Positions 1,589 to 61,200 of a stretch of 64,000 nt of DNA are shown piece by piece. The notes under the pieces were generated by a model. The model ran no database searches, was not told where the DNA came from, and was given only the letters and a program-made list of their open reading frames with translations. Where the stretch lies: IMG/VR virus record IMGVR_UViG_3300010365_001539, positions 76 through 64,075 of that record; one strand, written 5' to 3'. Position 1 is the stretch's first letter, and the number at the start of each line of letters is the position of its first letter. Position numbers and translations under genes: made by a program. Origin of the DNA: a virus (Duplodnaviria; Heunggongvirae; Uroviricota; Caudoviricetes).

Positions 1589-2106
1589 TGACCACCAATT
1601 TGGACTTACTAAAAACAATTTATAATGCAACTATCAGTTTACCTATAAAAAACAGAATTAATCCTGAGAATAAAACATCTGTAACTATTGGTCACTATTA
1701 TAGTAGCAATGAACCTTATTGTAAACTTAATGAGAAGGTTACATACTTTAATTATAGATTAAATAAGACTGGTGATATGAAGTTTAGATATGAAATAGAT
1801 CTTTATAAAACAGAACCATCTAAATTATTTGGATTTGTAATTAACGAGGGTAGATATATTCTAAGAGTACAAATTAGTGAACCTACTAATTATTCCACAA
1901 ACTTTAAAAATGAGTATTTCTTTGATAGTGATGTTATTAAAACACCATTAGTTAAAGATATATTTAATTTTCTAATGAATAGAAATATAGAACTAACTAA
2001 TTTAGAACTATCTGAAAAGTTTGAATTATATGTTAATGATTTAAGTAAATCAGTTGACAAAAGTGTAACAAGAGAAGAAACACTAAATAAAATATTAGAC
2101 AAATAA
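1588..2106 (+). CDS. hypothetical protein
   Basis: 172-aa ORF with an ATAATG junction to the upstream gene. Confidence 0.5.
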   Translation: MTTNLDLLKTIYNATISLPIKNRINPENKTSVTIGHYYSSNEPYCKLNEKVTYFNYRLNKTGDMKFRYEIDLYKTEPSKLFGFVINEGRYILRVQISEPTNYSTNFKNEYFFDSDVIKTPLVKDIFNFLMNRNIELTNLELSEKFELYVNDLSKSVDKSVTREETLNKILDK

Positions 2107-2318
2107 TGAGCAAAAGTGTTTGCTATATAAAAAGAGATAATGATAGATTATCAATCAATGCAATCTACAAAGGTGAAGATGTTTGGGATTTAATTGAACA
2201 AAAAATAAATGAACTCTCTGGGAAAGATATACTTTTAAATATATCATTTCCAGAGGGAACTCAAATTGATTTAGATGGCTACACAAATCACATTAGAGGG
2301 TATCTTACAGAAGTTTGA
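2106..2318 (+). CDS. hypothetical protein
   Basis: 70-aa ORF with an ATAATG overlap to the upstream stop. Confidence 0.4.
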   Translation: MSKSVCYIKRDNDRLSINAIYKGEDVWDLIEQKINELSGKDILLNISFPEGTQIDLDGYTNHIRGYLTEV

Positions 2319-2450
2319 TTATAAAAATAATGGTAGGATATATAGTGAAAAAATTTACAGAGAAGAAGTTAGAAAGTTAGAAATAGAAATCAAGATGAAA
2401 AATAGAAAAAGAAAAATAGAAAATATTCTTTCTAATCTAAAATAAGTTTG

Positions 2451-2458
2451 TATATTTG
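2451..2458 (+). promoter_or_regulatory. Bacteroidetes-type -7 promoter element TATATTTG (TAnnTTTG)
   Basis: Exact TAnnTTTG match 16 nt upstream of the ATG at 2475. A TTTG lies just upstream. Confidence 0.45.
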
Positions 2459-2474
2459 CTTAAAATTATACTAA

Positions 2475-2969
2475 ATGAGACCAGAAAATAAATGGAAACA
2501 TACTTCACAATCTGATGAAGAACTAAAAAAAGTAGCTAAAGACCTTTACAACAATGAAATCTTTAGTAACTTACACTTGAATGAATATGACTCTCTTGAA
2601 AGTCACTTCATGTGTATGTTATTCATGGCTCCTAAAGAACCTCAAGTACCTCAACCAAAATCTGGTGAAAACCAATCTATCATAGACACAAGAGACAACA
2701 AAATCTATGATTTAATCCAACTACAAAAAGACCAAGAACAATATGAAAAAGATATGGTTGATTATCCTTTTGAATTAGAGGACTATCAAGCTTGGCTTAA
2801 AGACCTTGGTTTCATCTATGAATATTACACAGCAGGTCAATCACCAATGGCAATAAATGGTAAACCAGTATTCTTTTCTATGAGATTAATGTGTAAAGAA
2901 GATACAAATAAAATGTTGGAGTTCTATCACCAATACAAAGAAATCAGAGAAACTGCAGACAACTTTTAA
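2475..2969 (+). CDS. hypothetical protein
   Basis: 164-aa ORF downstream of the promoter-like motif. Confidence 0.5.
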   Translation: MRPENKWKHTSQSDEELKKVAKDLYNNEIFSNLHLNEYDSLESHFMCMLFMAPKEPQVPQPKSGENQSIIDTRDNKIYDLIQLQKDQEQYEKDMVDYPFELEDYQAWLKDLGFIYEYYTAGQSPMAINGKPVFFSMRLMCKEDTNKMLEFYHQYKEIRETADNF

Positions 2970-2988
2970 TAATCAAAAACAAATACAT

Positions 2989-5046
2989 ATGAAAAATTTT
3001 CTTACATTACTTACAATTTTCTTAACATCAATTACATTTGGACAAGTTGACACTACTAAAGTAAACACTTTAGATGAAGTTACTGTTACAGCATCAAGAT
3101 TCAAATTAGAATCTGCTTCAGCAAAAACTATTAAAATGGATTCTGTTAAAACTTATCATGCACAAGAAACTCCTTATTTCTTCTCAACAACTCCATCAGT
3201 AGTTGCTCAGAGTGATAATGGTACTCCTTTTGGATATTCTTATTTTACTCTAAGAGGTATGGGTCAAAATCGTATCAACTATACATTAAATGGTGTTCCA
3301 TTAAATGATGGTGAAGATTTAGCAGTTTATACTTCTAATTATACTGACTTACTTAATAGTTTACGTTCTGTTCAAATCACCAGAGGTGCAGGTGTATCTG
3401 CAAATGGTTCAAGTTCTTATATTGGTTTAGTTAATATGGATTTAACAAGTCCATTTGATACTAAATCTGGTGAGTTTACATCTATGTTAGGTAGTTTTAA
3501 CTCAAGAAAGACATCTGTAAAAGTAAATACTGGTGTTAGTAAAAAAGGATTTGGTGCAACTTTTAGAGCATCAGAAACTTATACAGATGGATTTAGAGAC
3601 TTTTCATCTGGTAAAAGTCAATCTTTCTCAACATCTTTAGGATATAGAACAGAATATACATCAATTAGATTTAATGTTGTTTTTGGTAAAACTAAAAATG
3701 GTCAAGCATGGTTACCTGTCCCAGAAGGACTACCTGTTACAACAAATATCTTAGCAACTGCTTTTGGAATTAAACCACAATATGATGATTTTACAAGTGG
3801 TATCTATCAGTTACAAGTTGCTGGTAAATTCTCTGAACAAACTATATTCAATTTGAGTACTTACTTTACTCATGTTGATGGCAATTATGATATGCCTGCT
3901 TTTAGTGAAAACTATCCAGATAATACAAATAACTTAAAACTTAACTCAGCAAATTGGGGTGCATACTATAATGTTAAACACACAAGTAATGGTTTTACAA
4001 TTGAGCCAGGATTTACACTTAATTCATATTCAAGAAAACACACAGGAACAACAGATGGTGTATTTCAATATGATAATTTGGGAGAGAAATTTGATGCAAC
4101 TGCATTCACAAAAGCATCTTATAAATTAGGATTAGATTGGACAATTGAAGGTGACTACCAATTTAGAAGTACTTCTTTTACATATAAAAATGAATCTGAA
4201 AATTTTGGTGCTAAACTATATGAATATAACTTTCATAATTATTCCTTTGGATTGTCATACAGAGGTAATGATGTATTTAAACCTTATATAAGTTTTGGAA
4301 AATCTTCAAGAGAACCAAGTAGAACAAACTTACTATTTAAACTAGATAATACACCAAATAATTATGTAACTGATGGAACAACAATATCAACTGATAATAT
4401 ATCAAACCAGTCACAAATATCAAACACAAAATATGAAACTGTTAGAGATTTAGAAGTAGGTACTAAAATCAATTCTAAGTATATAAATGGATCTTTTAAT
4501 ACATACTATATGTATTTTAATAATGAAATTGTATCTATTGGTCAATTAAACTCAATGGGTATAGCATTAGGAACTAATGCTGATAAAAGTTATAGAGTAG
4601 GATTTGAAGGTGATTTAACATTAAAATTGAAAAAAATAGAAGTAGGAACAACATTTAATTTTTCCAAAAATAAAGTTTGGTTAGATGATGTAAAATCAGA
4701 ACCAGTATTGACACCTAACTTCATATCTAACTTATTTATAGACTATAATATTGGTAAGCTAAGCATTGGAACAAATTATAAATATGTTACACAATCATTT
4801 TTAGATAATAGTAATACATTCATCTGTCCAGAATATCACTTGGTAGATGCACATATTGGTTATAAATTCAAATCTGGTATATTGTTAAACCTATTTGTAA
4901 ATAATTTATTGAATAAAAATTGGACAACTGGTGGTAGTGTAGGATATCCTACAAATCCTGATGGTAGTAGTGCAGGAGATCCTTATAGACAATTTTACTA
5001 CACTGCAGGAACTAATACTTACTTAACACTAAACTATAAGTTCTAA
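2989..5046 (+). CDS. TonB-dependent receptor-like outer-membrane beta-barrel protein
   Basis: Signal peptide is followed by a TonB-box-like DEVTVTASR. Plug-domain-like motifs are present (FTLRGMGQNRINYTLNGVPLND, ITRGAGVSANGSSSYIGLVNM). The protein is long, beta-rich and aromatic-rich, and ends in a terminal Phe (…LNYKF), as TonB-dependent receptors do. Confidence 0.7.
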   Translation: MKNFLTLLTIFLTSITFGQVDTTKVNTLDEVTVTASRFKLESASAKTIKMDSVKTYHAQETPYFFSTTPSVVAQSDNGTPFGYSYFTLRGMGQNRINYTLNGVPLNDGEDLAVYTSNYTDLLNSLRSVQITRGAGVSANGSSSYIGLVNMDLTSPFDTKSGEFTSMLGSFNSRKTSVKVNTGVSKKGFGATFRASETYTDGFRDFSSGKSQSFSTSLGYRTEYTSIRFNVVFGKTKNGQAWLPVPEGLPVTTNILATAFGIKPQYDDFTSGIYQLQVAGKFSEQTIFNLSTYFTHVDGNYDMPAFSENYPDNTNNLKLNSANWGAYYNVKHTSNGFTIEPGFTLNSYSRKHTGTTDGVFQYDNLGEKFDATAFTKASYKLGLDWTIEGDYQFRSTSFTYKNESENFGAKLYEYNFHNYSFGLSYRGNDVFKPYISFGKSSREPSRTNLLFKLDNTPNNYVTDGTTISTDNISNQSQISNTKYETVRDLEVGTKINSKYINGSFNTYYMYFNNEIVSIGQLNSMGIALGTNADKSYRVGFEGDLTLKLKKIEVGTTFNFSKNKVWLDDVKSEPVLTPNFISNLFIDYNIGKLSIGTNYKYVTQSFLDNSNTFICPEYHLVDAHIGYKFKSGILLNLFVNNLLNKNWTTGGSVGYPTNPDGSSAGDPYRQFYYTAGTNTYLTLNYKF

Positions 5047-5441
5047 TGGACAAGAATAAGATTGTTAATAGTTTTGATATATTTGATAAATATGGTGATA
5101 TTGAAAAATTTCACCATTTATTAGAAAGTAAATTTGAAAAATATGAAAATACAATCACAGTAAATATGGGCTCATTCAAATACCCAAACTATGTTAAGAA
5201 AAAAGTTCCAGGTATTGCAGATAACTCAATCTATCTAATTGCAGAAGATGATTATTTTAGATTAATCTATGACAAAGGAATTGCAATGTTTGACTTAACA
5301 ATTAGAAAAGGACTATTAGTGAGTGAGTCAATAAAATTATCATCATCACTAACTAAAAATAAAGAAGATTTAACAAGAGTAATTGAATTATTAATTCACA
5401 AATTAAATGAACCAAGTAGAAATAATAGCAGTAGTCTTTAG
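5046..5441 (+). CDS. hypothetical protein
   Basis: 131-aa ORF with an ATG overlapping the upstream stop (TAATG). Confidence 0.45.
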   Translation: MDKNKIVNSFDIFDKYGDIEKFHHLLESKFEKYENTITVNMGSFKYPNYVKKKVPGIADNSIYLIAEDDYFRLIYDKGIAMFDLTIRKGLLVSESIKLSSSLTKNKEDLTRVIELLIHKLNEPSRNNSSSL

Positions 5442-5955
5442 TTTATTATCTGTAATCCTTGCAGTTAAAAACAACTTTCTTACATGGCCAGTAGGTATTG
5501 TAGGTGTCATATTCTATGGGATTTTGTTTTATCAAACAAAAACTTGGGGAAATATGTTCCTACAATTTCTCTTTATAGCTCAATCATTATATGGTTGGTA
5601 TAATTGGAAGAAAGATAAAGTAATTCTACCTATTGAGAAATTAGATAAACATGATGTAAATCTATTTGCAATAACAACTGGTTTACTATGTTTCTTTATA
5701 TCATTTGTACTTCTAATGACTGGTGATAAACAACCTTATCTTGATGGTATAACAACAGGATTAAGTATAGTTGGAACTTTATTATTAGCATTCAAAAAAA
5801 TAGATAATTGGTATTATTGGATAGCAGCAGATGTACTTTACATTTATTTATTTTATTCTCAGGGACTTTATTGGTCAACTGGAATATATTTTGTATTTTT
5901 GTTACTTGCAATATCAGGATTAAAAACATGGAATATGTCCTTAAAGAAGAGGTAA
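5407..5955 (+). CDS. pnuC: nicotinamide riboside transporter PnuC
   Basis: Multi-pass membrane protein with PnuC-like motifs (LYGWYNWKK, NWYYWIAADVLYIYLF) and the right size (182 aa). Confidence 0.8.
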   Translation: MNQVEIIAVVFSLLSVILAVKNNFLTWPVGIVGVIFYGILFYQTKTWGNMFLQFLFIAQSLYGWYNWKKDKVILPIEKLDKHDVNLFAITTGLLCFFISFVLLMTGDKQPYLDGITTGLSIVGTLLLAFKKIDNWYYWIAADVLYIYLFYSQGLYWSTGIYFVFLLLAISGLKTWNMSLKKR

Positions 5956-5990
5956 TAATTGTAATATATACATAAAAAGAAATTATTAAA

Positions 5991-6836
5991 ATGTATATAA
6001 AAGAAAGTGAAATTGTTAAAATTACAATATCTGATATAAGTAAAACAAAGTGGGAGAAAAAAATAGGTAAAAAAATTGAAGGAAATGAGATTGAAGTACA
6101 CTGGACTCTTCTAAAAGGATCAACATTTAGAACCATATCTATAAATTTAATATGTGATGATTGTAATATAATTCATAAAAGACGTATAAGAGATTTAGAT
6201 GTAGAAAGTAATATACATTATTGTAATAAATGTTTTAATAAAGGTAAAAGAAATGGTAACTTTGGCAAACCTTGTTCAGAAAAATCTAAAGAGGGTACAA
6301 AAAAATTTATGGAGTTAAATGGTAATCCATTTACCTGGGAAAGTAGTAAAATAAAAATAAGAGAGGCAAAACCTTGGGAAAAAGCACATAGTGCAAATAC
6401 TGGAAGTAAAAGAAGTGAAGAGGTTAAAACTAAAATGAGTGAGTCTGCAATTCTTGCTTTTAAAGAAGGTCGTAGAAGTCCTGGTAGTGGTTGGGCAAGA
6501 ATACATACAAAAGAATATAAAGGATTGGACTATCAAAGTAAATATGAACTAAAGTTTATACAATATTTGGAATCTAAAGGTAAATTAGATATTATTGAAA
6601 AAGGACCAACAATTCCTTACTTTGATATGAATGGTAAAGAACATATGTATTTCAGTGATTTTAAAATAAAAAACACAAATATAATATTTGAAATAAAATC
6701 TTGGTATTATTGGGAAAAAAACAAAGAAATAAATATCATAAAAAAAGAAACCGCTTCAAAAATATATGATTTTTATTTAATAATGGACAACAACTTTTCA
6801 GACATTGATAAACTAATTGAAAATGAAAAAATATAA
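5991..6836 (+). CDS. homing-endonuclease-like protein with an N-terminal Cys cluster, three NUMOD3-like repeats and a possible C-terminal PD-(D/E)xK-like region
   Basis: Three repeats resemble the NUMOD3 DNA-binding motif: NGNFGKPCSEKSKEGTKKF, NGNPFTWESSKIKIREA and HSANTGSKRSEEVKTKMSES. A Cys cluster CDDCN...YCNKC is present. The C-terminal segment ...YFSDFKIKNTNIIFEIKSWYYW could be a D...EIK nuclease motif. The gene sits between pnuC and nadR. Confidence 0.5.
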   Translation: MYIKESEIVKITISDISKTKWEKKIGKKIEGNEIEVHWTLLKGSTFRTISINLICDDCNIIHKRRIRDLDVESNIHYCNKCFNKGKRNGNFGKPCSEKSKEGTKKFMELNGNPFTWESSKIKIREAKPWEKAHSANTGSKRSEEVKTKMSESAILAFKEGRRSPGSGWARIHTKEYKGLDYQSKYELKFIQYLESKGKLDIIEKGPTIPYFDMNGKEHMYFSDFKIKNTNIIFEIKSWYYWEKNKEINIIKKETASKIYDFYLIMDNNFSDIDKLIENEKI

Positions 6837-7833
6837 AAATTCACTTGCCTTAATGAAGGCATACCCACCTCACTTAGGTCACTTATACCTAATTGATACT
6901 GCTATAGAAAATAGTGAGCATACTCATGTAGTTATCTCACATAATAAATCTCAGACAATACCTGGTGAAATCAGATTTAATTGTTTAAAAGAAATCTATA
7001 AAGATAATCCTAATGTAACTGTATATAACTTTGATGATACAGGACTTCCTCAATATGATTATGAATGTAAAACTCTTGATGAATTCTACTCTTATTGGGT
7101 TCCAGAAATCTATAAATTAGTTGATGGATTAGATGCAGTATTTACATCTGAAAGTTATGGTGATGATTTTGCTAAATATCTTGGTGTAGAACACTTTTTA
7201 GTTGATAAGGAAAGAACTACATACCCTGTATCAGGAACTGCCATTAGAACCAATACTTTTGATAAATGGGACTATATACCTCAACAAATAAAACCATACT
7301 TTGTGAAAAGAATTGCCATAATGGGTCCAGAATCTGTTGGTAAATCTACAATGACCAGAGAACTGGCAAATTGGTATCAAACTAATTTTGTTGATGAATA
7401 TGGTAGAACAGTTTATGAAGCTAATGGTAATAAAGTAACTCATGAAGATTTTATAACAATTTCAGTTGGTAGACAATCATTAGAAGATTGGAATCTTAAA
7501 AAATCAAATAAATTATTATTCTGTGATACAGAGGATATAACAACATATCTTTTCTTAAAGATGTATTGTGATGATTGGACTAAAGAAGAAGACCAGTGGT
7601 TCTTAAAAACACTCTCAGAGAAGAAACCATATGATTTGTATATCTTATTGAAACCAGATTTTGAAGGAGTACAAGATGGTACAAGAAGTTTTCTTGAAAT
7701 AAGACAAGAACATTATGAAACTATTAGAGAAGAATTAGTATTAAGAGGTTGTAATTTCATAGAAGTTGGTGGAGATTGGAAAGAAAGATTTGAAGAGTGT
7801 AAAAGAAATATAGAATTAAATTTTAATATATAA
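6817..7833 (+). CDS. nadR: bifunctional NMN adenylyltransferase / ribosylnicotinamide kinase (NadR-like, without the HTH domain)
   Basis: The N-terminal nucleotidyltransferase motif YPPHLGHLYL is the (H/T)xGH motif. A Walker-A GPESVGKST lies in the C-terminal kinase half. Overall NadR architecture, immediately downstream of pnuC. Confidence 0.85.
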   Translation: MKMKKYKNSLALMKAYPPHLGHLYLIDTAIENSEHTHVVISHNKSQTIPGEIRFNCLKEIYKDNPNVTVYNFDDTGLPQYDYECKTLDEFYSYWVPEIYKLVDGLDAVFTSESYGDDFAKYLGVEHFLVDKERTTYPVSGTAIRTNTFDKWDYIPQQIKPYFVKRIAIMGPESVGKSTMTRELANWYQTNFVDEYGRTVYEANGNKVTHEDFITISVGRQSLEDWNLKKSNKLLFCDTEDITTYLFLKMYCDDWTKEEDQWFLKTLSEKKPYDLYILLKPDFEGVQDGTRSFLEIRQEHYETIREELVLRGCNFIEVGGDWKERFEECKRNIELNFNI

Positions 7834-7836
7834 TTT

Positions 7837-8151
7837 ATGGAAAAGTTCACAGATAGAATAAATGAATCAGTTAGTAAGAAAGTATTTATAGAACCTGTTG
7901 CAAGTGCATCAGACTTTCTTGAATTTATTGATGAAAATGATTTTGACTTTGATGGTAATGAATTCTTTGATGGTATGGATATGTGGGAAGAAGGTACATT
8001 ATCAAGTAGATATTCTAAAGATTGGTGTCAAAAAGTAATTGATGGTAATACAGGAGAATATTGGGAAAGAAAAAAAGAATATTATCCAGCAATTCTTAAA
8101 TTGTTAGTAGATTACAATTTAGATACAATAAGATTTGCTTGTGATTGGTAA
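7837..8151 (+). CDS. hypothetical acidic protein
   Basis: 104-aa ORF, D/E-rich. Confidence 0.45.
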   Translation: MEKFTDRINESVSKKVFIEPVASASDFLEFIDENDFDFDGNEFFDGMDMWEEGTLSSRYSKDWCQKVIDGNTGEYWERKKEYYPAILKLLVDYNLDTIRFACDW

Positions 8152-8167
8152 AAAATAATTATAATAA

Positions 8168-8545
8168 ATGAAACACTTAAAAAAGTTTAATGAAATGAAT
8201 AATATAGATATGAATATATCTGGTCTTAAATGTGATAATTGTGATTACTCAGATCCATCAGTTAAATTAGAAGACTATGAAAAAAGTATTGGTAAACCTT
8301 GTCCTAAATGTGGTGAAAGTTTATTAACTCAAGAAGATTATGATGGTGTAATGCAAATTGTTCAAGCAGTTGAAATGTTAAATGGATTCTCAGAAGCAGA
8401 TATAGATGCAATTGCAGGTAATCTTTCAGAAGATGAAATTGATGGTGCATTAGATATGATGAACTTATTAAAAATGACCAAAACTGGTGAAACAGAAGAT
8501 GGTAGAGAAAAATGGGATATGGGTGGATTACCTAACAGAATATAA
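8168..8545 (+). CDS. leader-family protein (N-terminal MKHLKKFNE) with a zinc-ribbon-like Cys cluster
   Basis: N-terminal MKHLKKFNEMNN. Cys cluster CDNCDYSD...CPKCGES. Acidic C-terminus. Confidence 0.5.
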   Translation: MKHLKKFNEMNNIDMNISGLKCDNCDYSDPSVKLEDYEKSIGKPCPKCGESLLTQEDYDGVMQIVQAVEMLNGFSEADIDAIAGNLSEDEIDGALDMMNLLKMTKTGETEDGREKWDMGGLPNRI

Positions 8546-8547
8546 TT

Positions 8548-8994
8548 ATGATTAAAAATTATAACCAATTTATAAATGAAGAATTTAGTAATGATACCAT
8601 TATTGAAGTCCTAATAATTTTAGAGGATATACAAAAACAACTTAAAAAAGGTATTTGTCCAATGAAAATTATAAGTGAGAATCCAATTATATTTGAGTAT
8701 CATTCTGGTGCAATATATACAGATCAAATAGGTATAAACTTTAAACCACATCACCATTATGAAAAGGTATCTATAGACAATGAAAATAATCAAATAGTTA
8801 TTAAATGGTTAGATGTTATTGATACTATGTGGCCACACTATACACCAAATGAATTAAGATTTAATAGTGTAGATGAAATTGAAAAATTCCTTAAAAATAG
8901 ATATTTAGATAATAAATGGGAATTAAGAAAACTTAAAAAAGGTAGATATTTAACAGATGATGGTGTAGATGATATACCTTGGAATCTTAGATAA
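8548..8994 (+). CDS. hypothetical protein
   Basis: 148-aa ORF with an ATAATTATG junction. Confidence 0.5.
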   Translation: MIKNYNQFINEEFSNDTIIEVLIILEDIQKQLKKGICPMKIISENPIIFEYHSGAIYTDQIGINFKPHHHYEKVSIDNENNQIVIKWLDVIDTMWPHYTPNELRFNSVDEIEKFLKNRYLDNKWELRKLKKGRYLTDDGVDDIPWNLR

Positions 8995-9000
8995 ATAAAA

Positions 9001-9025
9001 AAGACTCAAATTGAGTCTTTTTCTA
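9001..9025. terminator. bidirectional rho-independent terminator
   Basis: Hairpin AAGACTCAA-ATT-TGAGTCTT is flanked by an A-run upstream and a T-run downstream. It lies between convergent genes 8548..8994 (+) and 9027..9506 (-). Confidence 0.7.
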
Positions 9026-9026
9026 T

Positions 9027-9506
9027 TTAGAAGTTTATTTTCAAACCTAAGTTTTTATTATATGGATCCTTAGAAGCAAATACTGAAATGTTTTTAGTTA
9101 AGTTCAAATTGGCTTGGAATATATTACCAAATGCATTTACATTTGTTATGAATGAACCTTTAGTAGTATATAAAAATTTATCAAAGAAATTCTTATCTAT
9201 ATTATTAACATCACAGAAATTTTCAAAATCCTCTTTTCTAACATCAGCACCTGCAGATGTTAAGAAGTCATAAACTAAATGTGCTTTTTCATCAACTATA
9301 GTATTTAAGTCTTTACTTTGTAATTCAGTTTTATCAAATACAATATTCTTTGCTTTTTTGTGTAGAACTTCTTCTACTTTTTCAGGAGTTACATTCTGTG
9401 AATTTATATAACCCATAGTTACCAATAAAGGTACTAAGAACATATTTTTAAGACCTTCATTTATATGATCTTCATTTACCTCATTAAATTTTTTTAAATA
9501 TTTCAT
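9027..9506 (-). CDS. leader-family protein (N-terminal MKYLKKFNE)
   Basis: 159-aa - strand ORF starting MKYLKKFNEVNE. Flanked by a terminator on one side and a promoter-like region on the other. Confidence 0.55.
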   Translation of the reverse strand: MKYLKKFNEVNEDHINEGLKNMFLVPLLVTMGYINSQNVTPEKVEEVLHKKAKNIVFDKTELQSKDLNTIVDEKAHLVYDFLTSAGADVRKEDFENFCDVNNIDKNFFDKFLYTTKGSFITNVNAFGNIFQANLNLTKNISVFASKDPYNKNLGLKINF

Positions 9507-18693: not shown

Positions 18694-18893
18694 AAGTATA
18701 TTGTCATGATAATAATTGGTTAGATAAAGAACCTAAACTAACAATTGGTAAGATGTATGAAGTGATTGAAGAAAGAGGACACAATTATTTTCTAATTGAA
18801 AATGATGAAGGTAAAAGAGAAATTTTCCCGAGATCTTGTTTTCAGTACATTGAACAAATGAGAGAAACAAAACTAAGAAAATTAGGAATATGA
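18690..18893 (+). CDS. small protein of the C-terminal KLxxLGI-motif family
   Basis: Starts MKVYC. Contains LTIGKMYEV. Ends MRETKLRKLGI. ATGA overlap on both sides. Confidence 0.5.
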   Translation: MKVYCHDNNWLDKEPKLTIGKMYEVIEERGHNYFLIENDEGKREIFPRSCFQYIEQMRETKLRKLGI

Positions 18894-19360
18894 TAGTTAT
18901 AAAACCAGATAGTTTAGAACAAGAATGTAATATGACATCTGTATTTCTTGCAGGTTCAATTGAAATGGGATTAGCAGAAGATTGGCAAACAAAAACTTCT
19001 GAGTTGTTTAAAGACACTGATGTTACTTTCTTTAACCCAAGAAGAGATGGTTGGGATTCAAGTTGGACTCAAGAAAGAATTAATAAAGAGTTTTCACATC
19101 AAGTGAATTGGGAAATGGATAGTTTAGAAGAGTGTGATATAATCTTTATGAATATATTACCTGGTACAAAAAGTCCAATCACTTTATTAGAACTTGGATT
19201 ACATGCCAACTCTAAAAAGATTATAGTTTGTTGTCCAGATGGATTTTGGAGAAAAGGAAATGTAGAAATTGTTTGTAGTAGATTTAAAATACCTCTTTAT
19301 AACAATTTTGAAGAAGCAGTTGAAAAATTAAAAGATATGATAAAAAATTCCTCTAAGTGA
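18890..19360 (+). CDS. nucleoside 2-deoxyribosyltransferase-like protein
   Basis: N-terminal VFLAGSI. The pattern ...NPRRDGW ... PGTKSPITLLELGLHANSKKIIV is typical of the nucleoside 2-deoxyribosyltransferase (NDT/Rcl) fold. Confidence 0.6.
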   Translation: MIVIKPDSLEQECNMTSVFLAGSIEMGLAEDWQTKTSELFKDTDVTFFNPRRDGWDSSWTQERINKEFSHQVNWEMDSLEECDIIFMNILPGTKSPITLLELGLHANSKKIIVCCPDGFWRKGNVEIVCSRFKIPLYNNFEEAVEKLKDMIKNSSK

Positions 19361-29221: not shown

Positions 29222-29935
29222 ATGAAAAATTTAATTGAAGTCTTTGAAGATACTAAACAATATACTTTAGATAATAATCTAATTAATAGTAAAACCACTA
29301 AACACACATTCTTAGAAATTGAAACTGCACATGGACTACCAAAGTCTAATATTTCTGTTATAAACTCTGATACAGTATCTGCAGCACTTGATTTTACATT
29401 ACTTGGTAAAACTGCCTTACTTAATATGGCTTCTTATAAAAGACCTGGAGGTGGTGTTAGAAATGGCGCAAGAGCACAAGAAGAATGTTTATTCAGATGT
29501 TCTAATCTATCAGAAGTAATACCTACATCACACTACCTTTTAAAAGAAGATGAATGTCTTTATACAAGTGCAGGAGTTTTCTTTAAAGACTTCAACTATG
29601 ATTACATAACACCAACTGAAATAGATGTAATCACTATACCAGCCATTAACCTAAATGGATTTGAACTAACTAATATCAAACAATACATTAAGACTAATAA
29701 AGACAAAATTAGATTGATGTTATCATTAGCAATCAAAAATGAAGTAAAGAATATTATCTTAGGTGCTTGGGGTTGTGGAGTATTTAAAAACAATCCAGTT
29801 CAAATTGCTACTTTCTTTAAAGAAGTTTTAGATGAAGGTTACAATTCATACTTTGATAATGTTGTATTTGCAATTATCAATGACCACAATTCAGTAGATA
29901 ATAATTTAGAAATCTTTAAATCAATCTTACAATGA
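29222..29935 (+). CDS. macrodomain / bacterial PARG-like (TIGR02452-like) ADP-ribose-processing protein
   Basis: LNMASYKRPGGGVRNGARAQEECLFRCSNL and GAWGCGVFKNNP match the signature motifs of the TIGR02452 (DUF2263) macro/PARG-like family by recall. Confidence 0.65.
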   Translation: MKNLIEVFEDTKQYTLDNNLINSKTTKHTFLEIETAHGLPKSNISVINSDTVSAALDFTLLGKTALLNMASYKRPGGGVRNGARAQEECLFRCSNLSEVIPTSHYLLKEDECLYTSAGVFFKDFNYDYITPTEIDVITIPAINLNGFELTNIKQYIKTNKDKIRLMLSLAIKNEVKNIILGAWGCGVFKNNPVQIATFFKEVLDEGYNSYFDNVVFAIINDHNSVDNNLEIFKSILQ

Positions 29936-30964: not shown

Positions 30965-31065
30965 ACGGGAGTAGAACAGTGGTAGTTCAGCTTGCTAGGA
31001 AATATAATGTTGTAATGTTATATTTCTGACCAGGATGGTCGTAGGTTCGAGCCCTACCTCCCGTA
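30965..31065 (+). tRNA. atypical tRNA-like gene (101 nt) with a ~22-nt hairpin insertion in the anticodon-arm region; isotype unresolved
   Basis: Acceptor stem ACGGGAG/CTCCCGT is a perfect 7 bp. D-arm GAAC-AGTGGTA-GTTC. T-arm GTAGG-TTCGAGC-CCTAC is canonical. Between the D- and T-arms lie 51 nt, including the long hairpin GAAATATAA-N10-TTATATTTC, so there is no canonical 17-nt anticodon arm. Confidence 0.5.
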
Positions 31066-33983: not shown

Positions 33984-34270
33984 AATTTTTTTCAATAGAT
34001 ACTGCAATAGATAATGAATATAGATTTTATAATATTCAAGGAGGTAATGTATTTTTTATTTTAAAAGAAAAGTTTGGAAAATATCATACTTCACAATTAT
34101 TTGAATATGAACCAATAGTTGAAGAACTAAAAGAATGGTCTATAAAAGTTATTCAAAATAATCCTAAAATAGGATTAGAAGATTTATCATTTAATTATGA
34201 TAAAGTAATCAAGCCAATGTTTATTTTACATCAGAGAGATAGTAAATTAACTCAACTTGGTATTACCTAA
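33980..34270 (+). CDS. hypothetical protein (ends RDSKLTQLGIT)
   Basis: 96-aa ORF. Confidence 0.45.
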   Translation: MKFFSIDTAIDNEYRFYNIQGGNVFFILKEKFGKYHTSQLFEYEPIVEELKEWSIKVIQNNPKIGLEDLSFNYDKVIKPMFILHQRDSKLTQLGIT

Positions 34271-34691
34271 TATCAGAAATGCCTATCTTTCTATTTATCT
34301 GTAAACTAACACCAGTACAAGAAGCATACTCAGGAACTTTACCATCTATTACATCTTTTACAGAAAAAACTTTATTAAATTGATTAGGTGCAATTTGTGG
34401 TTCATAACTATCAAAACCAACATTACTATATGCAATTACATATCTTTCAGATAATATTTGTAAGAATGGAATAAAATCATCTTCTATTTCATTCCAGTAA
34501 AATCTTCTACCTCTACCTGGAAAATTTATATCATTATAATCTCTATCAAGTATAGTTATATGAGTATTAACATCATTACTATTAACATAACATTCAAACT
34601 TTCCATCTGTTAGATAAGCCAAATACTCTTTACAAAACTCTTCCAATTCATCACCAAGTTTTGATTCATTAAACTTTTTTAAATATTTCAT
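34263..34691 (-). CDS. leader-family protein (MKYLKKFNE), FC-E-LAYL-D-GF / W-EI-DDFIPF subfamily
   Basis: 142-aa - strand ORF. Contains the EEFCKEYLAYLTDGKF and WNEIEDDFIPFLQILSERY motifs. Confidence 0.55.
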   Translation of the reverse strand: MKYLKKFNESKLGDELEEFCKEYLAYLTDGKFECYVNSNDVNTHITILDRDYNDINFPGRGRRFYWNEIEDDFIPFLQILSERYVIAYSNVGFDSYEPQIAPNQFNKVFSVKDVIDGKVPEYASCTGVSLQINRKIGISDIR

Positions 34692-36679: not shown

Positions 36680-36910
36680 ATGAAAATCTCCCATATAATA
36701 TGTATGGGAGATTCAAGAACTAAATATTATGATGATTGGGATGATTACAGAGATTTCTGTGATTCATTGAAAATACAACCTAAAGATGATTTCTATACAC
36801 ATCAAAGAGAACTACTGAATGAATTAGGTTTTAAACACCTAAATGAATACTATGAAAATCTTAGAACTATTGAAGTAAGAGATAAGAAGATTAATCAAAT
36901 TCTGGATTAA
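36680..36910 (+). CDS. hypothetical protein (ends RDKKINQILD)
   Basis: 76-aa ORF. Confidence 0.45.
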   Translation: MKISHIICMGDSRTKYYDDWDDYRDFCDSLKIQPKDDFYTHQRELLNELGFKHLNEYYENLRTIEVRDKKINQILD

Positions 36911-37451
36911 TATCATCAAATGGTTCAACTAAATCAATATCTTCTTCCTCTATTAAGTGGTCAATTACTTGTCTTTGAATAGACTCCATTCTTTTTCTTG
37001 CTTTATTCAATGGGAAAAATTTAATATTATAAATTTCCTCTTCACCTAAAACTCTTTTCATAGTTTTATTTCTCAATACTAAACTATTAGGTTTTAAATA
37101 CTTTGCAAAATCCTCCCTTGTCTTATGATAAACAAAAACTTCTAACTCTTTAGTAATACCACTCTTTCTATAGTTTACTATAAATTTATAATCATAACGT
37201 CTGTCCAATTTAATACCAGCTTCTTCTTTAAGCTCTTTAAGTGCAGATGTTAAAGAGTTTCTACCTTCAATGTGTCCTTTAGGTAAAGACCATTTTACTC
37301 TTGAATGTTTGAACTTATCTGGTAATACTAATAGAATATTATCATCTACTAAAACTGCTACACCTGATAGTTTGTTTACTTTTTCCTGTTTGAATGCTTC
37401 AAATAATTTTAACCAAATCATAAAACTATATATTAAAGTTTGTTTATTCAA
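36891..37451 (-). CDS. Nudix hydrolase
   Basis: Nudix box GHIEGRNSLTSALKELKEEAGI (G-x5-E-x7-[RK]-E-x2-EE-x-G-I). Preceded by the beta-strand region VAVLVDDNILLVLP. Confidence 0.7.
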   Translation of the reverse strand: MNKQTLIYSFMIWLKLFEAFKQEKVNKLSGVAVLVDDNILLVLPDKFKHSRVKWSLPKGHIEGRNSLTSALKELKEEAGIKLDRRYDYKFIVNYRKSGITKELEVFVYHKTREDFAKYLKPNSLVLRNKTMKRVLGEEEIYNIKFFPLNKARKRMESIQRQVIDHLIEEEDIDLVEPFDDINPEFD

Positions 37452-46666: not shown

Positions 46667-46966
46667 TTAGTTAAATGGATCCCAATCTTTATCATCATCA
46701 AATGCATTATCTCTACTACTAGGTCTATTACTTCCAATTTCATCAAGTTCTGCTACTAAATCAGAATCATCTAATATTCTTTGTAAAAGAACTTTATCCC
46801 ACTTTGTTAACCCTGTTAAGTTATCATCATAGTCATTCAATATCTCTAAAGCATTTACTGTTTCTTCTGGATCATAGTTAGCTTCATTCTCATTATAGAA
46901 GTCTATTAGTCTGTCTTTTAGAGAACCTTCTTCTACATTCTCATTAAATCTTTTTAAGTATTTCAT
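46667..46966 (-). CDS. leader-family protein (MKYLKRFNEN), acidic
   Basis: 99-aa - strand ORF. Confidence 0.5.
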   Translation of the reverse strand: MKYLKRFNENVEEGSLKDRLIDFYNENEANYDPEETVNALEILNDYDDNLTGLTKWDKVLLQRILDDSDLVAELDEIGSNRPSSRDNAFDDDKDWDPFN

Positions 46967-46975
46967 ATCTATTTT

Positions 46976-47419
46976 TTATTTTTCTGAATTAAGAACATCT
47001 ATTTCTATAGTTCTTATTAAGTCTGCTCTAAAAGTTGGATAACCACAATTTTCCATTTTATCATTTAGTAATTCATCTATTGAAAAGTAATAATGATTAC
47101 CATCACTTTTCTTTTCTGGTCTAGCCCAAATTAAAACCTCTTCTGTTTCTCTATTATCAATATCATACTTCTCTCTTAATAATTCAAGAAATGGTGAGAA
47201 ATCATCTTTTATATCATTCCAAATAATATTTTTCCCTCTAAAAGTAAATCTTATCTTTGAATAATCACCATTATCAGAAATGTTAAAATAATAACCTTCA
47301 TCTAATAAATAAGCTAAGTTTTCTTCACAAAAATCTTCTAACTTACTTATAAAAAGTTCATGACTTGATGTATCAATTATTTTTGCTTCATTAAATCTTT
47401 TTAAGTATTTTAATTCCAT
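46976..47419 (-). CDS. leader-family protein (MELKYLKRFNEA), FCEENLAYLLDEGYYF / WNDIKDDFSPF subfamily
   Basis: 147-aa - strand ORF. Confidence 0.55.
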   Translation of the reverse strand: MELKYLKRFNEAKIIDTSSHELFISKLEDFCEENLAYLLDEGYYFNISDNGDYSKIRFTFRGKNIIWNDIKDDFSPFLELLREKYDIDNRETEEVLIWARPEKKSDGNHYYFSIDELLNDKMENCGYPTFRADLIRTIEIDVLNSEK

Positions 47420-56059: not shown

Positions 56060-56986
56060 ATGGAAATAAATAAAGAGTCTTTTATTGTTTATAAAATAAT
56101 AAATAATACAAATAATAAAATTTATATTGGAGTTCATAAGACTTTTAATATAAATGATAGTTATATGGGTTCTAGTGTTAAACTAAAACAAGATATAATT
56201 GAAATAGGTATACAAAAATTCACAAAAGAAATTCTATTTATATTTGATAACAAAGAAGAAATGTTATCAAAAGAATCAGAATTAGTAGATAAACCTTTTG
56301 TAGAAAGAGAAGATACATATAATATAATGTTGGGTGGAGGATTTCTCTGTGGTGAACTAACCAAGAATACAATAGTTGTTAGAGATTTTCAAGGAAATAA
56401 ATTTAGAGTAAATTCAGATGATGAAAGGTATATAAATGGAGAATTTACACCTATTACAAAAGGATATTTAACCGTAAAAGACTTTAACAATAAAACATAT
56501 TTTGTAGAAAAAAATGATGAAAGATATTTAAGTGGAGATTTGGTTCCATATTGGAAAGGAAATAAAAAATCAATAGAATCTATCGAAAAAATAAAAGGTG
56601 TTAATAATCCATTCTATGGTAAAAAACATTCTGATGAAGCCAAATTAAAAATATCCAATGCAAACAAACTAAATGTAGGTGAACTTAATGCATTCTTTGG
56701 TAAAAAACATTCTGATGAAACTAAAGAGATGCTAAGTATAATTGGTAAAGACTTATATAAAAGTGGAAAGAATAAAGGATTTCTTGGTAAAAAACATTCT
56801 GATGAAACCAAATTAAAACTATCACTCATAGACAGAAGTAAAGAGAAAAATTCACAATTTGGTACTTGTTGGATATATAATGAACAACTAAAGAAAAATA
56901 AAAAAATAAAAAAAGATGAACTTGAAATCTGGATAAAGAATGGCTGGATAAAAGGAATGAATAAAAAATTTTTTAATAAACTGTAA
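56060..56986 (+). mobile_element. free-standing GIY-YIG homing endonuclease with three NUMOD3 repeats
   Basis: N-terminal GIY...YIG (FIVYKIINNTNNKIYIGVHKT ... YMGS). Three repeats NPFYGKKHSDEAKLKIS, NAFFGKKHSDETKEMLS and KGFLGKKHSDETKLKLS. The NUMOD3 repeats also create nucleotide repeats at about 56590-56830. Confidence 0.8.
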
Positions 56987-57243
56987 TGAAAGTAATTGCC
57001 TTACAAACATTTCCTGATTACTTTATAACTAAAGGTAATATCTATGAAGTAGAAGAAACTCCCTGGATATATGAACCTATTGAGTTTAATAGATATAAAG
57101 ATATGATTATAAAATGTGATGATGGTAAAAGTAGAAAAATTCAAGGTCAAGATAATGTTTATGACCATAGAGAAGTAAAATACACTCACTTCAAAGATGT
57201 AAGAGAATTAAGAGAAGAAAAATTAAACCAATTAGGTATATGA
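56986..57243 (+). CDS. C-terminal motif family protein (ends LREEKLNQLGI)
   Basis: 85-aa ORF. Confidence 0.45.
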   Translation: MKVIALQTFPDYFITKGNIYEVEETPWIYEPIEFNRYKDMIIKCDDGKSRKIQGQDNVYDHREVKYTHFKDVRELREEKLNQLGI

Positions 57244-58987: not shown

Positions 58988-59099
58988 ACCATTTGAATAC
59001 CAAGAAACTAAAGGTCTTTTTGGTAATACAACTGAAACCTATGGTGAAGTTATTTTAAGAAATACAAAAGAGTTTTTAACAATTAAAGAAGTACTATAA
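58911..59099 (+). CDS. small hypothetical protein; possibly the 3' part of a frameshifted gene
   Basis: 62-aa ORF overlapping the upstream ORF by 77 nt. Confidence 0.3.
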   Translation: MNWKQKKVLGAMEATLVMEGHLEYAKPFEYQETKGLFGNTTETYGEVILRNTKEFLTIKEVL

Positions 59100-61191: not shown

Positions 61192-61200
61192 GTCAAGACT

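Follow-up and report, generated by a model that had tools for sequence, protein, structure and literature searches.

A TonB-dependent receptor, PnuC and NadR form a probable NAD+ salvage module in a huge phage that carries a homing-endonuclease-like gene at its pnuC/nadR overlap

INTRODUCTION

Why would a phage carry genes for importing nicotinamide riboside and converting it to NAD+, and how did a further reading frame come to lie between them? These questions are raised by a 64,000-nucleotide stretch of viral DNA (positions 76 to 64,075 of IMG/VR record IMGVR_UViG_3300010365_001539; the whole stretch is called the window below), in which the initial annotation had recognized a pnuC-nadR pair interrupted by a homing-endonuclease-like gene. 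We consider it likely that a salvage operon comprising a TonB-dependent receptor (TBDR), PnuC, and NadR was captured whole from bacteria by a huge phage, and that a homing endonuclease gene was inserted at the pnuC/nadR overlap.

RESULTS AND DISCUSSION

Origin of the window

The only DNA matches of the window in the phage collection are LR745206 and LR756502, uncultured phages of 635 to 642 kb. Its nearest relatives are uncultured phage genomes of 635 to 735 kb and 640-kb contigs, and homologues sit on contigs of 641, 640, 483, and 463 kb. The gene content is phage-like, with a collagen-like tail fiber, a tRNA, and about a hundred small orphan ORFs that make up the bulk of the window ORFs, at a GC content of 25 to 33%. 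These relatives assign the window to a huge phage with a genome of about 640 kb, whose host group is probably the Bacteroidota, in agreement with the initial annotation, which had treated the DNA as phage rather than host chromosome. It is very improbable that the window comes from a bacterial chromosome, or from a genomic island free of prophage, with the operon being the host's own. The operon is indeed common in Bacteroidota chromosomes, and cellular-type genes (an Mqo fragment, Pirin, and SPFH) are present in the window; however, complete megaphage genomes and viral contigs of 460 to 640 kb are nearest at both the DNA and the protein level, the receptor shares just 28 to 33% identity with the best bacterial copies, and the orphan ORFs, the tail fiber, two homing endonuclease genes, and the low GC content fit a huge phage.

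PnuC and a divergent NadR

5407-5955, + strand: PnuC-type nicotinamide riboside transporter, 182 aa
6823-7833, + strand: NadR-type bifunctional enzyme lacking the HTH domain, with NMN adenylyltransferase (NMNAT) and ribosylnicotinamide kinase (RNK) domains
about 6865-7251, + strand: NMNAT domain of NadR
about 7309-7788, + strand: RNK domain of NadR

Both genes lie where they had been placed, with the 281-aa ORF between them, and domain searches support both assignments. PnuC matches Pfam NMN_transporter (PF04973, E = 2.2e-45), PHROG 1880 (8.3e-27), and PDB entry 4QTN (5.3e-7), and its score against the TIGR01528 equivalog (84.2 bits) is above the cut-off of 42.45. For nadR, the automated ORF call begins at TTG 6817, whereas the homologous start is ATG 6823. 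The protein is matched by AAA_28 (RNK; 2.5e-27), CTP_transf_like (1.2e-4), TIGR01526 (8.4e-64), and PHROG 3462 (5.4e-72), and it aligns over the full length of Escherichia coli NadR (8X7F, 3.5e-40), Haemophilus influenzae NadR (1LW7, 7.5e-36), and Bas30_86 (9X6F/9X6H, 2.4e-33; full-length alignment to 9X6F). The last of these is the enzyme of NARP3, a pathway of Escherichia and Salmonella phages that consists of the PnuC-like transporter Bas30_87 and the HTH-less NadR Bas30_86 (Sci Adv 2026; PMC13464706). Profile searches found no HTH domain in the window NadR, which lacks it because the protein begins at the NMNAT motif. The motifs HLGH, SGTAIR, GPESVGKST (Walker A), and CDTED are recognizable in the sequence and align with 8X7F, 1LW7, and 9X6F; in the GxFxPxHxGH motif, G-K-F is replaced by M-K-A. 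Scores fall under the NCBIfam equivalog cut-offs for both TIGR01526 (215.8 versus 341.15) and NF005988 (155.5 versus 201), and the window NadR is a divergent family member.

An upstream receptor completes a three-gene module

2989-5046, + strand: TonB-dependent outer-membrane receptor, 685 aa, first gene of the module
5046-5441, + strand: ORF131, a variable small ORF between the receptor gene and pnuC

The initial annotation was right that pnuC and nadR are real, but the unit has three genes and the receptor upstream was overlooked. The receptor matches Plug (2.5e-9) and TonB_dep_Rec_b-barrel (3.3e-21) in Pfam; a TonB-dependent receptor should have a plug, a 22-strand barrel, a signal peptide, and a TonB box, and the last two, with LDEVTVTA as a TonB-box-like stretch, were read directly from the sequence. 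The C terminus reads YKF. Its gene is followed by ORF131, whose ATG overlaps the receptor stop codon (ATGA) and whose last 35 nt are shared with pnuC. A terminator search of the + strand between 2300 and 9100 found none. The order TBDR-PnuC-NadR is found in loci L001 to L007, L010, L116, and L124; when IMG/VR was queried with NadR alone, 17 of the 22 loci retrieved showed it as well. Among the best 80 bacterial loci, retrieved with the receptor alone (L013 to L092), 60 contain NadR and 47 contain receptor, PnuC, and NadR, most of them with this gene order and overlapping reading frames; these three-gene loci are mainly from Bacteroidota and Gemmatimonadota. The phage module has gene order and overlapping frames in common with most of the 47 bacterial operons. 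The phage copies differ in having gained ORF131, ORF281, small ORFs, and a helicase-like gene at the two junctions. No published description of a bacterial TBDR-pnuC-nadR operon was found in the literature searched.

The megaphage receptor (in Mar_Mega_1 and LR745206) was annotated as SusC by Michniewski et al., who suggested carbohydrate uptake (PMC9723777). With this annotation in view, the receptor could be unrelated to NAD+ salvage, either a SusC-like carbohydrate importer or a superinfection-exclusion surface protein that happens to lie beside pnuC. Lak phages have a related receptor with neither PnuC nor NadR within 5 kb, and the receptor family therefore need not always serve NAD+ salvage; in addition, the best relatives among solved structures are metallophore receptors, matched weakly (about 2e-6) over the C-terminal barrel. 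We nevertheless hold an unrelated receptor to be quite unlikely, since 47 of 80 bacterial loci retrieved with the receptor alone and 17 of 22 viral loci retrieved with NadR alone share the TBDR-PnuC-NadR arrangement, often with overlapping frames. A receptor of the SusC/RagA type, which would have about 1000 aa and a SusD-like gene next to it, was considered and rejected: the protein has 685 aa, its NCBIfam matches are siderophore-type families with no SusC/RagA family among them, and the genes downstream are ORF131 and pnuC, with no SusD-like neighbor. ORF131, a second variable ORF at the receptor/pnuC junction, had likewise gone unnoticed.

ORF281 resembles a homing endonuclease with a PD-(D/E)xK domain

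5991-6836, + strand: ORF281, free-standing homing-endonuclease-like gene (281 aa, 846 nt), with its stop 14 nt inside nadR
6153-6233, + strand: zinc ribbon of ORF281 (C55, C58, C78, and C81)
6240-6467, + strand: helical part of ORF281, including two NUMOD3-like stretches at aa 84-101 and 137-159
6498-6836, + strand: PD-(D/E)xK nuclease domain of ORF281 (E186, D223, and E234-x-K236)

Sixty homologues of ORF281 were collected. Across 49 homologues the four zinc-ribbon cysteines are invariant, as are E186, D223, E234, and K236, and the catalytic residues of the nuclease domain are intact in ORF281. The protein matches PHROG families named "endonuclease" at about 1e-9. Sequence comparison with solved structures gave no significant match (best I-MsoI, E of 0.069); in the AF2 model (pLDDT of 89.9), the predicted nuclease fold is closest to a known homing endonuclease.

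The initial annotation had described NUMOD3-like repeats in ORF281. The ORF stands and so does a NUMOD3 signal in its family, where Pfam NUMOD3 matches 23 of 49 members (best 3.9e-6), but the signal is marginal and below threshold in the window copy: Pfam NUMOD3 gives nothing at E of ≤1, and the two stretches align weakly in BLASTP (E of about 0.08 to 0.09) with the genuine NUMOD3 pair of the second homing endonuclease gene in the window (56060-56986, GIY-YIG plus NUMOD3). DUF7836 matches 42 of the 49 family members and DUF7487 matches 39 of 49 at E of ≤1, with distant relatives reaching 1e-58 and 199 bits. ORF281 itself scores 24 bits against DUF7487, under the 27-bit gathering threshold, and may be regarded as a divergent member. 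The wider family, which corresponds to DUF7487, comprises 2179 cluster representatives; Pfam lists it as of unknown function, and the present analysis suggests a homing-endonuclease-like role that combines NUMOD3 with PD-(D/E)xK.

Among known homing endonucleases, the EDxHD family includes I-Bth0305I and free-standing phage Hef (PMC3239194). The EDxHD composite motif is absent from ORF281, in which D223 is followed by F-K-I and not by x-H-D; the catalytic signature is instead the classical E...D...ExK. Unlike I-Bth0305I, ORF281 has an extra N-terminal zinc ribbon, and its gene is free-standing rather than intron encoded.

ORF281 lies at an ancestral gene overlap and has a distribution discordant with its flanks

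5928-5975, + strand: left copy of the ancestral pnuC/nadR overlap and a vestigial ORF, from alignment with the insert-free locus L124

In L124, from a 640-kb relative, ORF281 is exactly missing and pnuC and nadR overlap by 28 nt. The DNA of L124 and L125 is 87 to 97% identical to the window on both flanks, with ORF281 alone missing. The L124 alignment is identical up to window position 5933, and the ATG-to-stop distance is 28 nt in both. The left copy of the ancestral 28-nt overlap occupies 5928-5955 and still codes for the PnuC C terminus, and a vestigial 15-codon ORF begins where the ancestral nadR ATG stood. Both genes are intact because the overlap exists on both sides of the insert.

Relatives with a contiguous pair, which the initial annotation had proposed to look for, are clearly present: the genes overlap without an insert in L124, L125, L001, L002, and most IMG/VR loci (ten overlapping). 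Only one of 20 IMG/VR loci with pnuC-nadR has ORF281, and none of the best 80 bacterial loci does. At this one site, the insert is carried by the window, L119, and L120 and is missing from L124 and L125, and along the ranking by NadR identity, carriers and noncarriers of ORF281 alternate. Identity to the window is far higher in the endonuclease than in its neighbors, both for L099 (endonuclease, 87%; NadR, 62%; PnuC, 47%; receptor, 34%) and for L003 (85, 68, 50, and 32%, respectively). Members of the ORF281 family also occur in unrelated gene neighborhoods (L008/L009 and L011/L012). The nuclease fold, the clean absence from L124 and L125, and a distribution at odds with the phylogeny of the flanking genes bear out the homing-endonuclease-like interruption, and on these grounds we class ORF281 as a free-standing homing endonuclease gene. 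Free-standing homing endonucleases of T4-like phages (the Seg and Mob families) have catalytic domains of the GIY-YIG or HNH type. Their genes are inserted between conserved genes, differ in presence from one close relative to another, and spread when an insert-free genome is cut and then repaired by recombination. ORF281 shares the intergenic insertion and the presence/absence pattern with them and differs in its PD-(D/E)xK nuclease domain.

The synonymous divergence of ORF281 (0.62 to 0.69) is just modestly below that of the flanks (0.72 to 1.34), so its spread is not recent. Its dN/dS of 0.12 to 0.16 indicates strong purifying selection, compared with 0.32 to 0.41 for PnuC and similar or higher values for NadR. 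The stop codon overlaps the nadR start by 14 to 35 nt in six loci (the window, L003, L004, L007, L010, and L099). Such long persistence under a dN/dS below that of PnuC and similar to or below that of NadR, the constancy of the stop/start overlap, and homologues down to 49 to 53% identity at the same site would suit a domesticated nuclease or DNA-binding protein that is kept for the benefit of the phage and is not, or no longer, selfish, for instance one that degrades competitor or host DNA or controls the nadR translated directly behind it. We judge domestication unlikely, though not negligible, given that ORF281 is cleanly absent from a 93%-identical NadR background (L124 and L125), from most modules sampled without bias (present in one of the 20 IMG/VR pnuC-nadR loci), and from all 80 bacterial loci, that its relatives sit in unrelated contexts, and that its identity exceeds that of the flanks by 20 to 50 points; moreover, a fixed site is the expected product of a site-specific homing enzyme.

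A diverged patch at the nadR start alters a catalytic motif

6826-6861, + strand: diverged patch, nadR codons 2 to 13, directly downstream of the insert

Compared with L124, the patch has 13 substitutions in 12 aligned codons and a one-codon deletion, whereas the next 36 nt are identical (36/36). The substitutions include the synonymous multinucleotide changes AGT>TCA and TTA>CTT, and the patch turns GKF of the GxFxPxHxGH motif, which is retained in L124, into MKA. L007, a distant carrier, likewise has MKAY; carriers L004, L006, and L010 keep GKF or GKY, and the patch is not common to all carriers. It may be what is left of the endonuclease target, a candidate immunity patch. In Bas30_86, the K10A/F11A double mutation lowered NAD+ regeneration (PMC13464706). 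K10 and F11 would be the K and F of GKF if, as the alignment leads us to infer, the crystal construct has a six-residue offset; with MKA in place of GKF, the adenylyltransferase step of the window NadR may be weakened.

Dispersed PARG, Nudix, and NDT-like genes

18890-19360, + strand: nucleoside 2-deoxyribosyltransferase-like (NDT-like) protein (Nuc_deoxyri_tr2, PF15891, 1.6e-32)
29222-29935, + strand: microbial-type PARG, a macrodomain protein (PARG_cat_microb, PF10021, 1.4e-19)
36891-37451, - strand: Nudix hydrolase with a degenerate Nudix box (PF00293, 1.7e-9; 38.2 bits versus a cut-off of 21.1)

All three genes exist, as had been proposed; the coherent NAD/ADP-ribose toolkit that they were said to form with the salvage pair does not hold in the same way, as they are scattered over 30 kb, at 11 to 30 kb from the module with none adjacent, and no evidence ties them to it.

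Proposed function and relation to known NAD+ pathways

During infection, the receptor would be exported to the host outer membrane, where the host TonB system would power the uptake of nicotinamide riboside or a related NAD+ precursor. PnuC would then carry the riboside across the inner membrane, the RNK domain of NadR would convert it to NMN, and the NMNAT domain would convert NMN to NAD+, so that NAD+ would stay available to the phage and could offset NAD+-depleting defense systems, by analogy with NARP3. ORF281, with its zinc ribbon, NUMOD3-like and putatively DNA-binding region, and PD-(D/E)xK nuclease, would have been inserted precisely at the 28-nt overlap, and nadR is now read immediately after it. 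When genomes with and without the insert meet in a mixed infection, the enzyme would presumably cleave the insert-free ones close to the start of nadR, and recombinational repair would copy its gene into them.

Experiments with E. coli and Salmonella phages showed that NARP3 restores NAD+ and that phages are rescued by it from Sir2-HerA and DSR1 (PMC13464706), and an anti-defense role of the window pnuC-nadR is suggested by this homology. The two have in common a phage-borne PnuC and an HTH-less NadR (NMNAT plus RNK), whose genes are adjacent in the insert-free relatives of the window. The window module differs from NARP3 in its conserved third gene, the upstream TonB-dependent outer-membrane receptor; in its carrier, a 640-kb megaphage with bacterial relatives of the module in Bacteroidota rather than an enterobacterial phage; in the homing endonuclease gene (846 nt) that splits the pair; and in a shorter PnuC (182 aa) and an NMNAT motif that reads MKA instead of GKF. 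TonB, the outer membrane, jumbo phages, and homing all go unmentioned in the NARP3 paper (PMC13464706). Because the two-gene core was published in 2026, novelty is confined to the receptor-coupled megaphage version and the endonuclease insertion.

A broader proposal is offered tentatively, at somewhat less than even confidence. Megaphages of >600 kb would equip the host outer membrane with their own TonB-dependent gate, through which nicotinamide riboside, NMN, or NAD+ is scavenged from the surroundings, and the same receptor family would be the hitherto unassigned outer-membrane NAD+-precursor transporter of Bacteroidota and Gemmatimonadota; DUF7487 would represent a homing endonuclease lineage of a seventh style, combining a zinc ribbon, NUMOD3, and classical PD-(D/E)xK, whose invasion of the overlapping pair left an immunity patch that rewrote a NadR catalytic motif. 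If this is true, the receptor-coupled module is a three-tier version of NARP3 in megaphages.

Alternatively, the module may be a general metabolic booster for the 640-kb replication cycle and for NAD+-consuming enzymes of the phage, independent of host NADase immunity, a view to which we give about one chance in three. NAD+ synthesis genes are common in jumbo phages, and in a study of "NAD-jumbo phages" pnuC was present in 68 of 174 (PMC11662467). Bacteria use the same operon for housekeeping salvage, and the PARG, Nudix, and NDT-like proteins of the window suggest ADP-ribose and nucleotide turnover. Against a purely metabolic role, the homologous two-gene system neutralizes Sir2-HerA and DSR1; both roles are compatible, and the sequence does not separate them.

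NARP2 and the NadV-NatV pathway of Vibrio phage KVP40 are another phage-encoded NAD+ salvage route (cited in PMC13464706 and PMC9723777). This route likewise ends in an NMNAT step; it differs from the window module in that its starting point is nicotinamide, used via Nampt, that a Nudix domain takes the place of RNK in NatV, and that there is no dedicated outer-membrane receptor.

Identity and phage origin of the pnuC-nadR locus

The receptor, transporter, and salvage genes lie on one strand in the following arrangement.

2989-5046, plus strand: TonB-dependent receptor, 685 aa, with Plug and barrel domains, directly preceding the pnuC-nadR pair
5046-5441, plus strand: ORF131, a 131-aa ORF between the receptor gene and pnuC
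5407-5955, plus strand: PnuC, 182 aa (Pfam NMN_transporter, 2.2e-45; PHROG 1880 match; solved PnuC 4QTN, 5.3e-7)
5991-6836, plus strand: ORF281, 281 aa, between pnuC and nadR, with its stop codon 14 nt inside nadR
6817/6823-7833, plus strand: NadR-type protein, nucleotidyltransferase domain at the N terminus and AAA_28 kinase domain at the C terminus (TIGR01526, 8.4e-64; PHROG 3462, 5.4e-72)

PnuC, the 281-aa ORF, and NadR were found exactly where the initial annotation had placed them, and the PnuC and NadR assignments are backed by Pfam, NCBIfam, PHROG, and solved-structure matches. PnuC scored 84.2 bits against the NCBIfam equivalog TIGR01528 (cut-off, 42.45), and NadR could be aligned end to end with the NadR proteins of Escherichia coli (8X7F, 3.5e-40) and Haemophilus influenzae (1LW7, 7.5e-36) and with phage Bas30_86 (9X6F/9X6H, 2.4e-33). 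The window NadR lacks an HTH domain. Homology with relatives identifies ATG 6823 as the predicted true start of nadR, not TTG 6817 of the ORF listing.

The proviso that the region might be host chromosome can be answered from its relatives and content. DNA matches among 50,697 phage records were confined to uncultured phages of 635 to 642 kb, homologues occur on contigs of 460 to 641 kb, and the window combines 25 to 33% GC with about 100 small orphan ORFs, a collagen-like tail fiber, a GIY-YIG homing endonuclease gene, and a tRNA; this evidence points to phage, not host, DNA. The phage collection contains no relative of the largest protein in the window (844 aa). Three further genes had been grouped with the pair as an NAD/ADP-ribose toolkit.

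29222-29935: PARG
18890-19360: deoxyribosyltransferase-like gene
36891-37451, minus strand: Nudix gene, degenerate Nudix by Pfam

These genes are real, but they are 11 to 30 kb from the module, and in relatives they are not linked with it. Searching the window for a strict Nudix box with a regular expression gave no match. In one related locus (L001), a Nudix gene is directly upstream of the receptor gene, and a connection of the toolkit genes with NAD+ salvage is plausible.

ORF281 belongs to a family of putative PD-(D/E)xK endonucleases

ORF281 has 60 homologues of about 280 aa. Residues C55, C58, C78, and C81 as well as E186, D223, E234, and K236 are invariant across the 49 homologues compared, and the last four form a classical PD-(D/E)xK signature. 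Pfam scanning of 49 family members detected the zinc ribbon DUF7836 in 42, DUF7487 in 39, and a TnsA-like endonuclease in 8. The NUMOD3-like repeats initially ascribed to the 281-aa ORF are found in the family, with NUMOD3 in 23 of the 49 members (best, 3.9e-6), but the window copy gave no NUMOD3 match in the same scan, and a bona fide NUMOD3 pair from another protein of the window shows only weak alignment with the two candidate stretches of this copy. Searching 1.84 billion representatives with a profile yielded 2179 related clusters, and all 10 of the distant relatives sampled carry DUF7487. Because of these Pfam matches in family members and distant relatives, DUF7487 ("unknown function") is probably a lineage of NUMOD3 plus PD-(D/E)xK endonucleases. 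The ORF281 profile retrieved nothing significant from PDB sequences, and no second copy of the family was found in the window. A homing endonuclease gene of a different class is located at 56060-56986; it is of the GIY-YIG type (SegE-like) and has a strong pair of NUMOD3 motifs (7.9e-19).

ORF281 is a probable mobile insert between conserved genes

The close relative L124, a 640,004-bp contig recovered via the neighboring ORF131, has pnuC and nadR contiguous, as the initial annotation had proposed to check. Its receptor, ORF131, PnuC, and NadR are 81%, 79%, 88%, and 93% identical to the window proteins, and the DNA is 87 to 97% identical on both sides, with ORF281 cleanly missing and pnuC and nadR overlapping by 28 nt. 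The insert is present in two other contigs (L119 and L120) that hardly differ from the window. Both allele types are represented in samples such as ERZ27257450, SRR29782974, and ERZ28593091. In a ranking of all loci by the identity of their NadR to that of the window, ORF281 carriers and noncarriers alternate. Similarity is also discordant: ORF281 is 87% identical to its counterpart in L099 (NadR, 62%; PnuC, 47%; receptor, 34%) and 85% identical to that in L003 (NadR, 68%; PnuC, 50%; receptor, 32%), and at the DNA level, identity rises from about 60% in pnuC to 78 to 90% in ORF281. Elsewhere, relatives of ORF281 reside beside sulfur-metabolism genes (L008 and L009) or beside a 1582-aa protein (L011 and L012). 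Four lines of sequence evidence, i.e., the clean indel, the patchy distribution, the discordant similarity, and the other contexts, therefore argue that ORF281 is mobile, and the insertion polymorphism and distribution bear out the reading of a homing endonuclease gene wedged between conserved genes.

IMG/VR loci recovered with NadR provided a sample unbiased by the endonuclease; a single-protein query gave no match in this viral-contig scan, whereas an alignment query worked. Only one of these loci contains ORF281, and in ten pnuC and nadR overlap; others have different inserts at the junction, either small ORFs or a 462-aa helicase-like gene. The junction is a hotspot for unrelated inserts. 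The inserts observed (L098, L099, L105, L108, and L109/L110) comprise two small ORFs, one of which resembles DUF1653 by eye, an 87-aa ORF, and the 462-aa helicase-like gene with a GTGKT Walker A motif. ORF281 was absent from all 80 of the best bacterial loci found with the receptor. An exact-match scan for a nadR segment gave no locus in viral contigs and only one extra locus in metagenome contigs (L126), where the insert is present with a mosaic central region. This 285-aa variant (L126 385-1242) matches the window copy almost exactly at its two ends, whereas unrelated sequence takes the place of the central NUMOD3-like segment, a pattern suggestive of mosaicism at the domain level in this endonuclease family.

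The dN/dS of ORF281 is 0.12 to 0.16, and its dS is 0.62 to 0.69, compared with 0.72 to 1.34 in the flanks; the gene thus appears to be functional and old, not the product of a recent sweep. Low synonymous divergence was also considered as proof of recent transfer, and although lower than in the flanks, it is not decisive. The same selection figures are the main support for the rival explanation that ORF281 has been domesticated, which we regard as improbable; we retain the reading of a mobile homing endonuclease gene.

Insertion site and the 5' end of nadR

In L124, the nadR ATG lies 28 nt ahead of the pnuC stop (ATGGAAAAAAGATTTAAAAATAGTTTAG). The window has two diverged copies of this overlap segment: the left copy (5928-5955) is still the end of pnuC and leaves a vestigial 15-codon ORF from the old nadR ATG, and the right copy is the start of the working nadR at 6823. 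Between the window and L124, codons 2 to 13 of nadR show 13 substitutions over the 12 codons that align, among them the synonymous multibase switches AGT to TCA and TTA to CTT, together with the deletion of one codon; the following 36 nucleotides are identical. Target-site immunity patches occur beside other phage homing endonuclease genes, and codons 2 to 13 are, by analogy, a candidate for such a patch. The patch is not common to other carriers; a search for a nadR 5' signature present in all carriers and no noncarriers found none consistent, and only the window lineage and L007 have MKAY.

Within the patch, GKF of the NMNAT (NMN adenylyltransferase) motif GxFxPxHxGH reads MKA (6853-6861, NadR residues 11 to 13), a change shared with the distant L007 and absent from the 93%-identical L124. 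The K10A/F11A double mutant of Bas30_86 has reduced NAD+ regeneration (PMC13464706); K10 and F11 would correspond to the K and F of the window motif if numbering of the crystal construct is shifted by six residues. Because MKA replaces GKF and the double mutant is impaired, the adenylyltransferase step of the window allele may be weakened.

A receptor-coupled three-gene module

The receptor gene adjoins pnuC in most relatives, and all of the related phage loci examined (among them that of the 735-kb LR756501) as well as 17 of 22 IMG/VR loci have the order receptor-PnuC-NadR. Bacterial genomes were searched with the receptor alone as the query, using one genome per species. Among the 80 best loci, mostly from Bacteroidota and Gemmatimonadota, 47 encode both PnuC and NadR, and in most of these the gene order is that of the phages and the reading frames overlap; 60 have NadR. 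Such operons occur in tractable Bacteroidota such as Zobellia or a Flavobacterium (L026 and L027). Since bacterial loci share this order, the phage module appears to be a captured bacterial operon, and the most likely substrate of the receptor in this gene context is nicotinamide riboside or a related precursor. We found no paper describing the three-gene operon in a literature search. The megaphage receptor was earlier annotated as SusC for carbohydrate uptake (PMC9723777); this identity is not supported, as there is no SusC/RagA signature, no SusD neighbor, and the length is wrong.

Receptor homologues in the phage collection are almost confined to genomes larger than 540 kb. All Lak megaphages (for instance, the Prevotella Lak phages L115 and L117) have one at about 30% identity, and neither PnuC nor NadR was found within 5 kb of these receptors, with or without TAG recoding. 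DNA identity of the receptor gene (3100-4900) with L004 and L124 reaches 89 to 97% in some 100- to 150-nt windows and 54 to 73% in others; parts of the barrel may have undergone recombination or diversifying change. Structure prediction for ORF131 gave a confident model in only one of five cases, and comparison of folds gave weak matches. In L116 (LR756501, 735 kb), receptor and PnuC are separated (6940-7735) by two ORFs, one Cys-rich and 80 aa long and the other 205 aa long with a HAD-type DFDNT motif. The H. influenzae phosphatase e(P4) converts NMN to the riboside ahead of PnuC uptake, and one idea, by analogy, is that an e(P4)-like role might be filled here. No Rfam riboswitch, including the pnuC and NAD+ classes, was detected, either at gathering thresholds or with E of ≤1 in 2000-8200; a sigma-70 promoter scan was uninformative (44 sites versus 48.7 expected), and no plus-strand terminator was found in 2300-9100.

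Relation to NARP3

The PnuC-NadR pair was published in August 2026 as NARP3, which rescued T7 and lambda from Sir2-HerA and DSR1 (PMC13464706), and PnuC and NadR in jumbo phages had been noted previously (PMC11662467). By homology, the counter-defense role initially proposed for the window module would be right in kind and is no longer new; a general role in NAD+ supply is equally compatible. Whereas NARP3 was described in enterobacterial phages and without an outer-membrane uptake step, the window module includes a receptor. The core combines NARP3 with a free-standing homing endonuclease gene, both of a known kind; modest novelty lies in the receptor-coupled megaphage form, the likely DUF7487 function, and the natural pairing of insert and insert-free alleles. 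If these readings are true, NARP3 counter-defense would extend to the largest known phages and another host phylum, with outer-membrane uptake; the megaphage "SusC" receptor would be reassigned from carbohydrate to NAD+-precursor uptake, providing a candidate Bacteroidota outer-membrane nicotinamide riboside transporter and a testable function for a large receptor family; Pfam DUF7487 and DUF7836 would gain a likely function; and the natural alleles of the window and L124 would be a ready-made substrate for mapping the endonuclease target. Basic concepts are unchanged, as the core pathway and the behavior of homing endonuclease genes are already known.

Other features of the window

At 299-892, an ORF covers only the C-terminal 197 residues of malate:quinone oxidoreductase (Pfam Mqo 294-489 of 489, 1.4e-91), and a stop codon interrupts the frame upstream. 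Close to the edge of the window, this gene may be split or truncated. The otherwise ~100% identical L119 is without the three ORFs at 7837-8994, so that nadR is directly followed by the homologue of 9027-9506, a further indel polymorphism within one phage population. An Rfam tRNA match at 30965-31065 (101 nt, 42.5 bits), which ARAGORN did not call, may represent a tRNA gene interrupted by an insertion or intron.

A C-terminal tail, R-[ED]-x-K-[LI]-[NK]-x-[LI]-[GL]-(I) (for instance, REEKLNQLGI), is shared by 39 of 143 nonoverlapping ORFs, all on the plus strand, compared with a mean of 0.4 matches in random internal 16-aa windows. These ORFs occur across the whole window and are densest at 50.7 to 61.4 kb (e.g., 56986-57243, 59099-59470, and 60405-61431), and the last codons of the motif often overlap the start of the next gene (ATATGA). 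Third codon positions vary, so it is the protein sequence of the tail that is conserved; a tag for sorting, packaging, or degradation would be one explanation, and the mark of a large paralogous family another. A nearly identical N terminus, MKYLKKFNE, is found in at least six ORFs (8168; 38764; and, on the minus strand, 9027-9506, 34263-34691, 46667-46966, and 46976-47419), which look like a second multicopy family; such starts are also present in ORFs of L001 and L002, and similar ones occur in the related megaphages LR756502 and LR745206.
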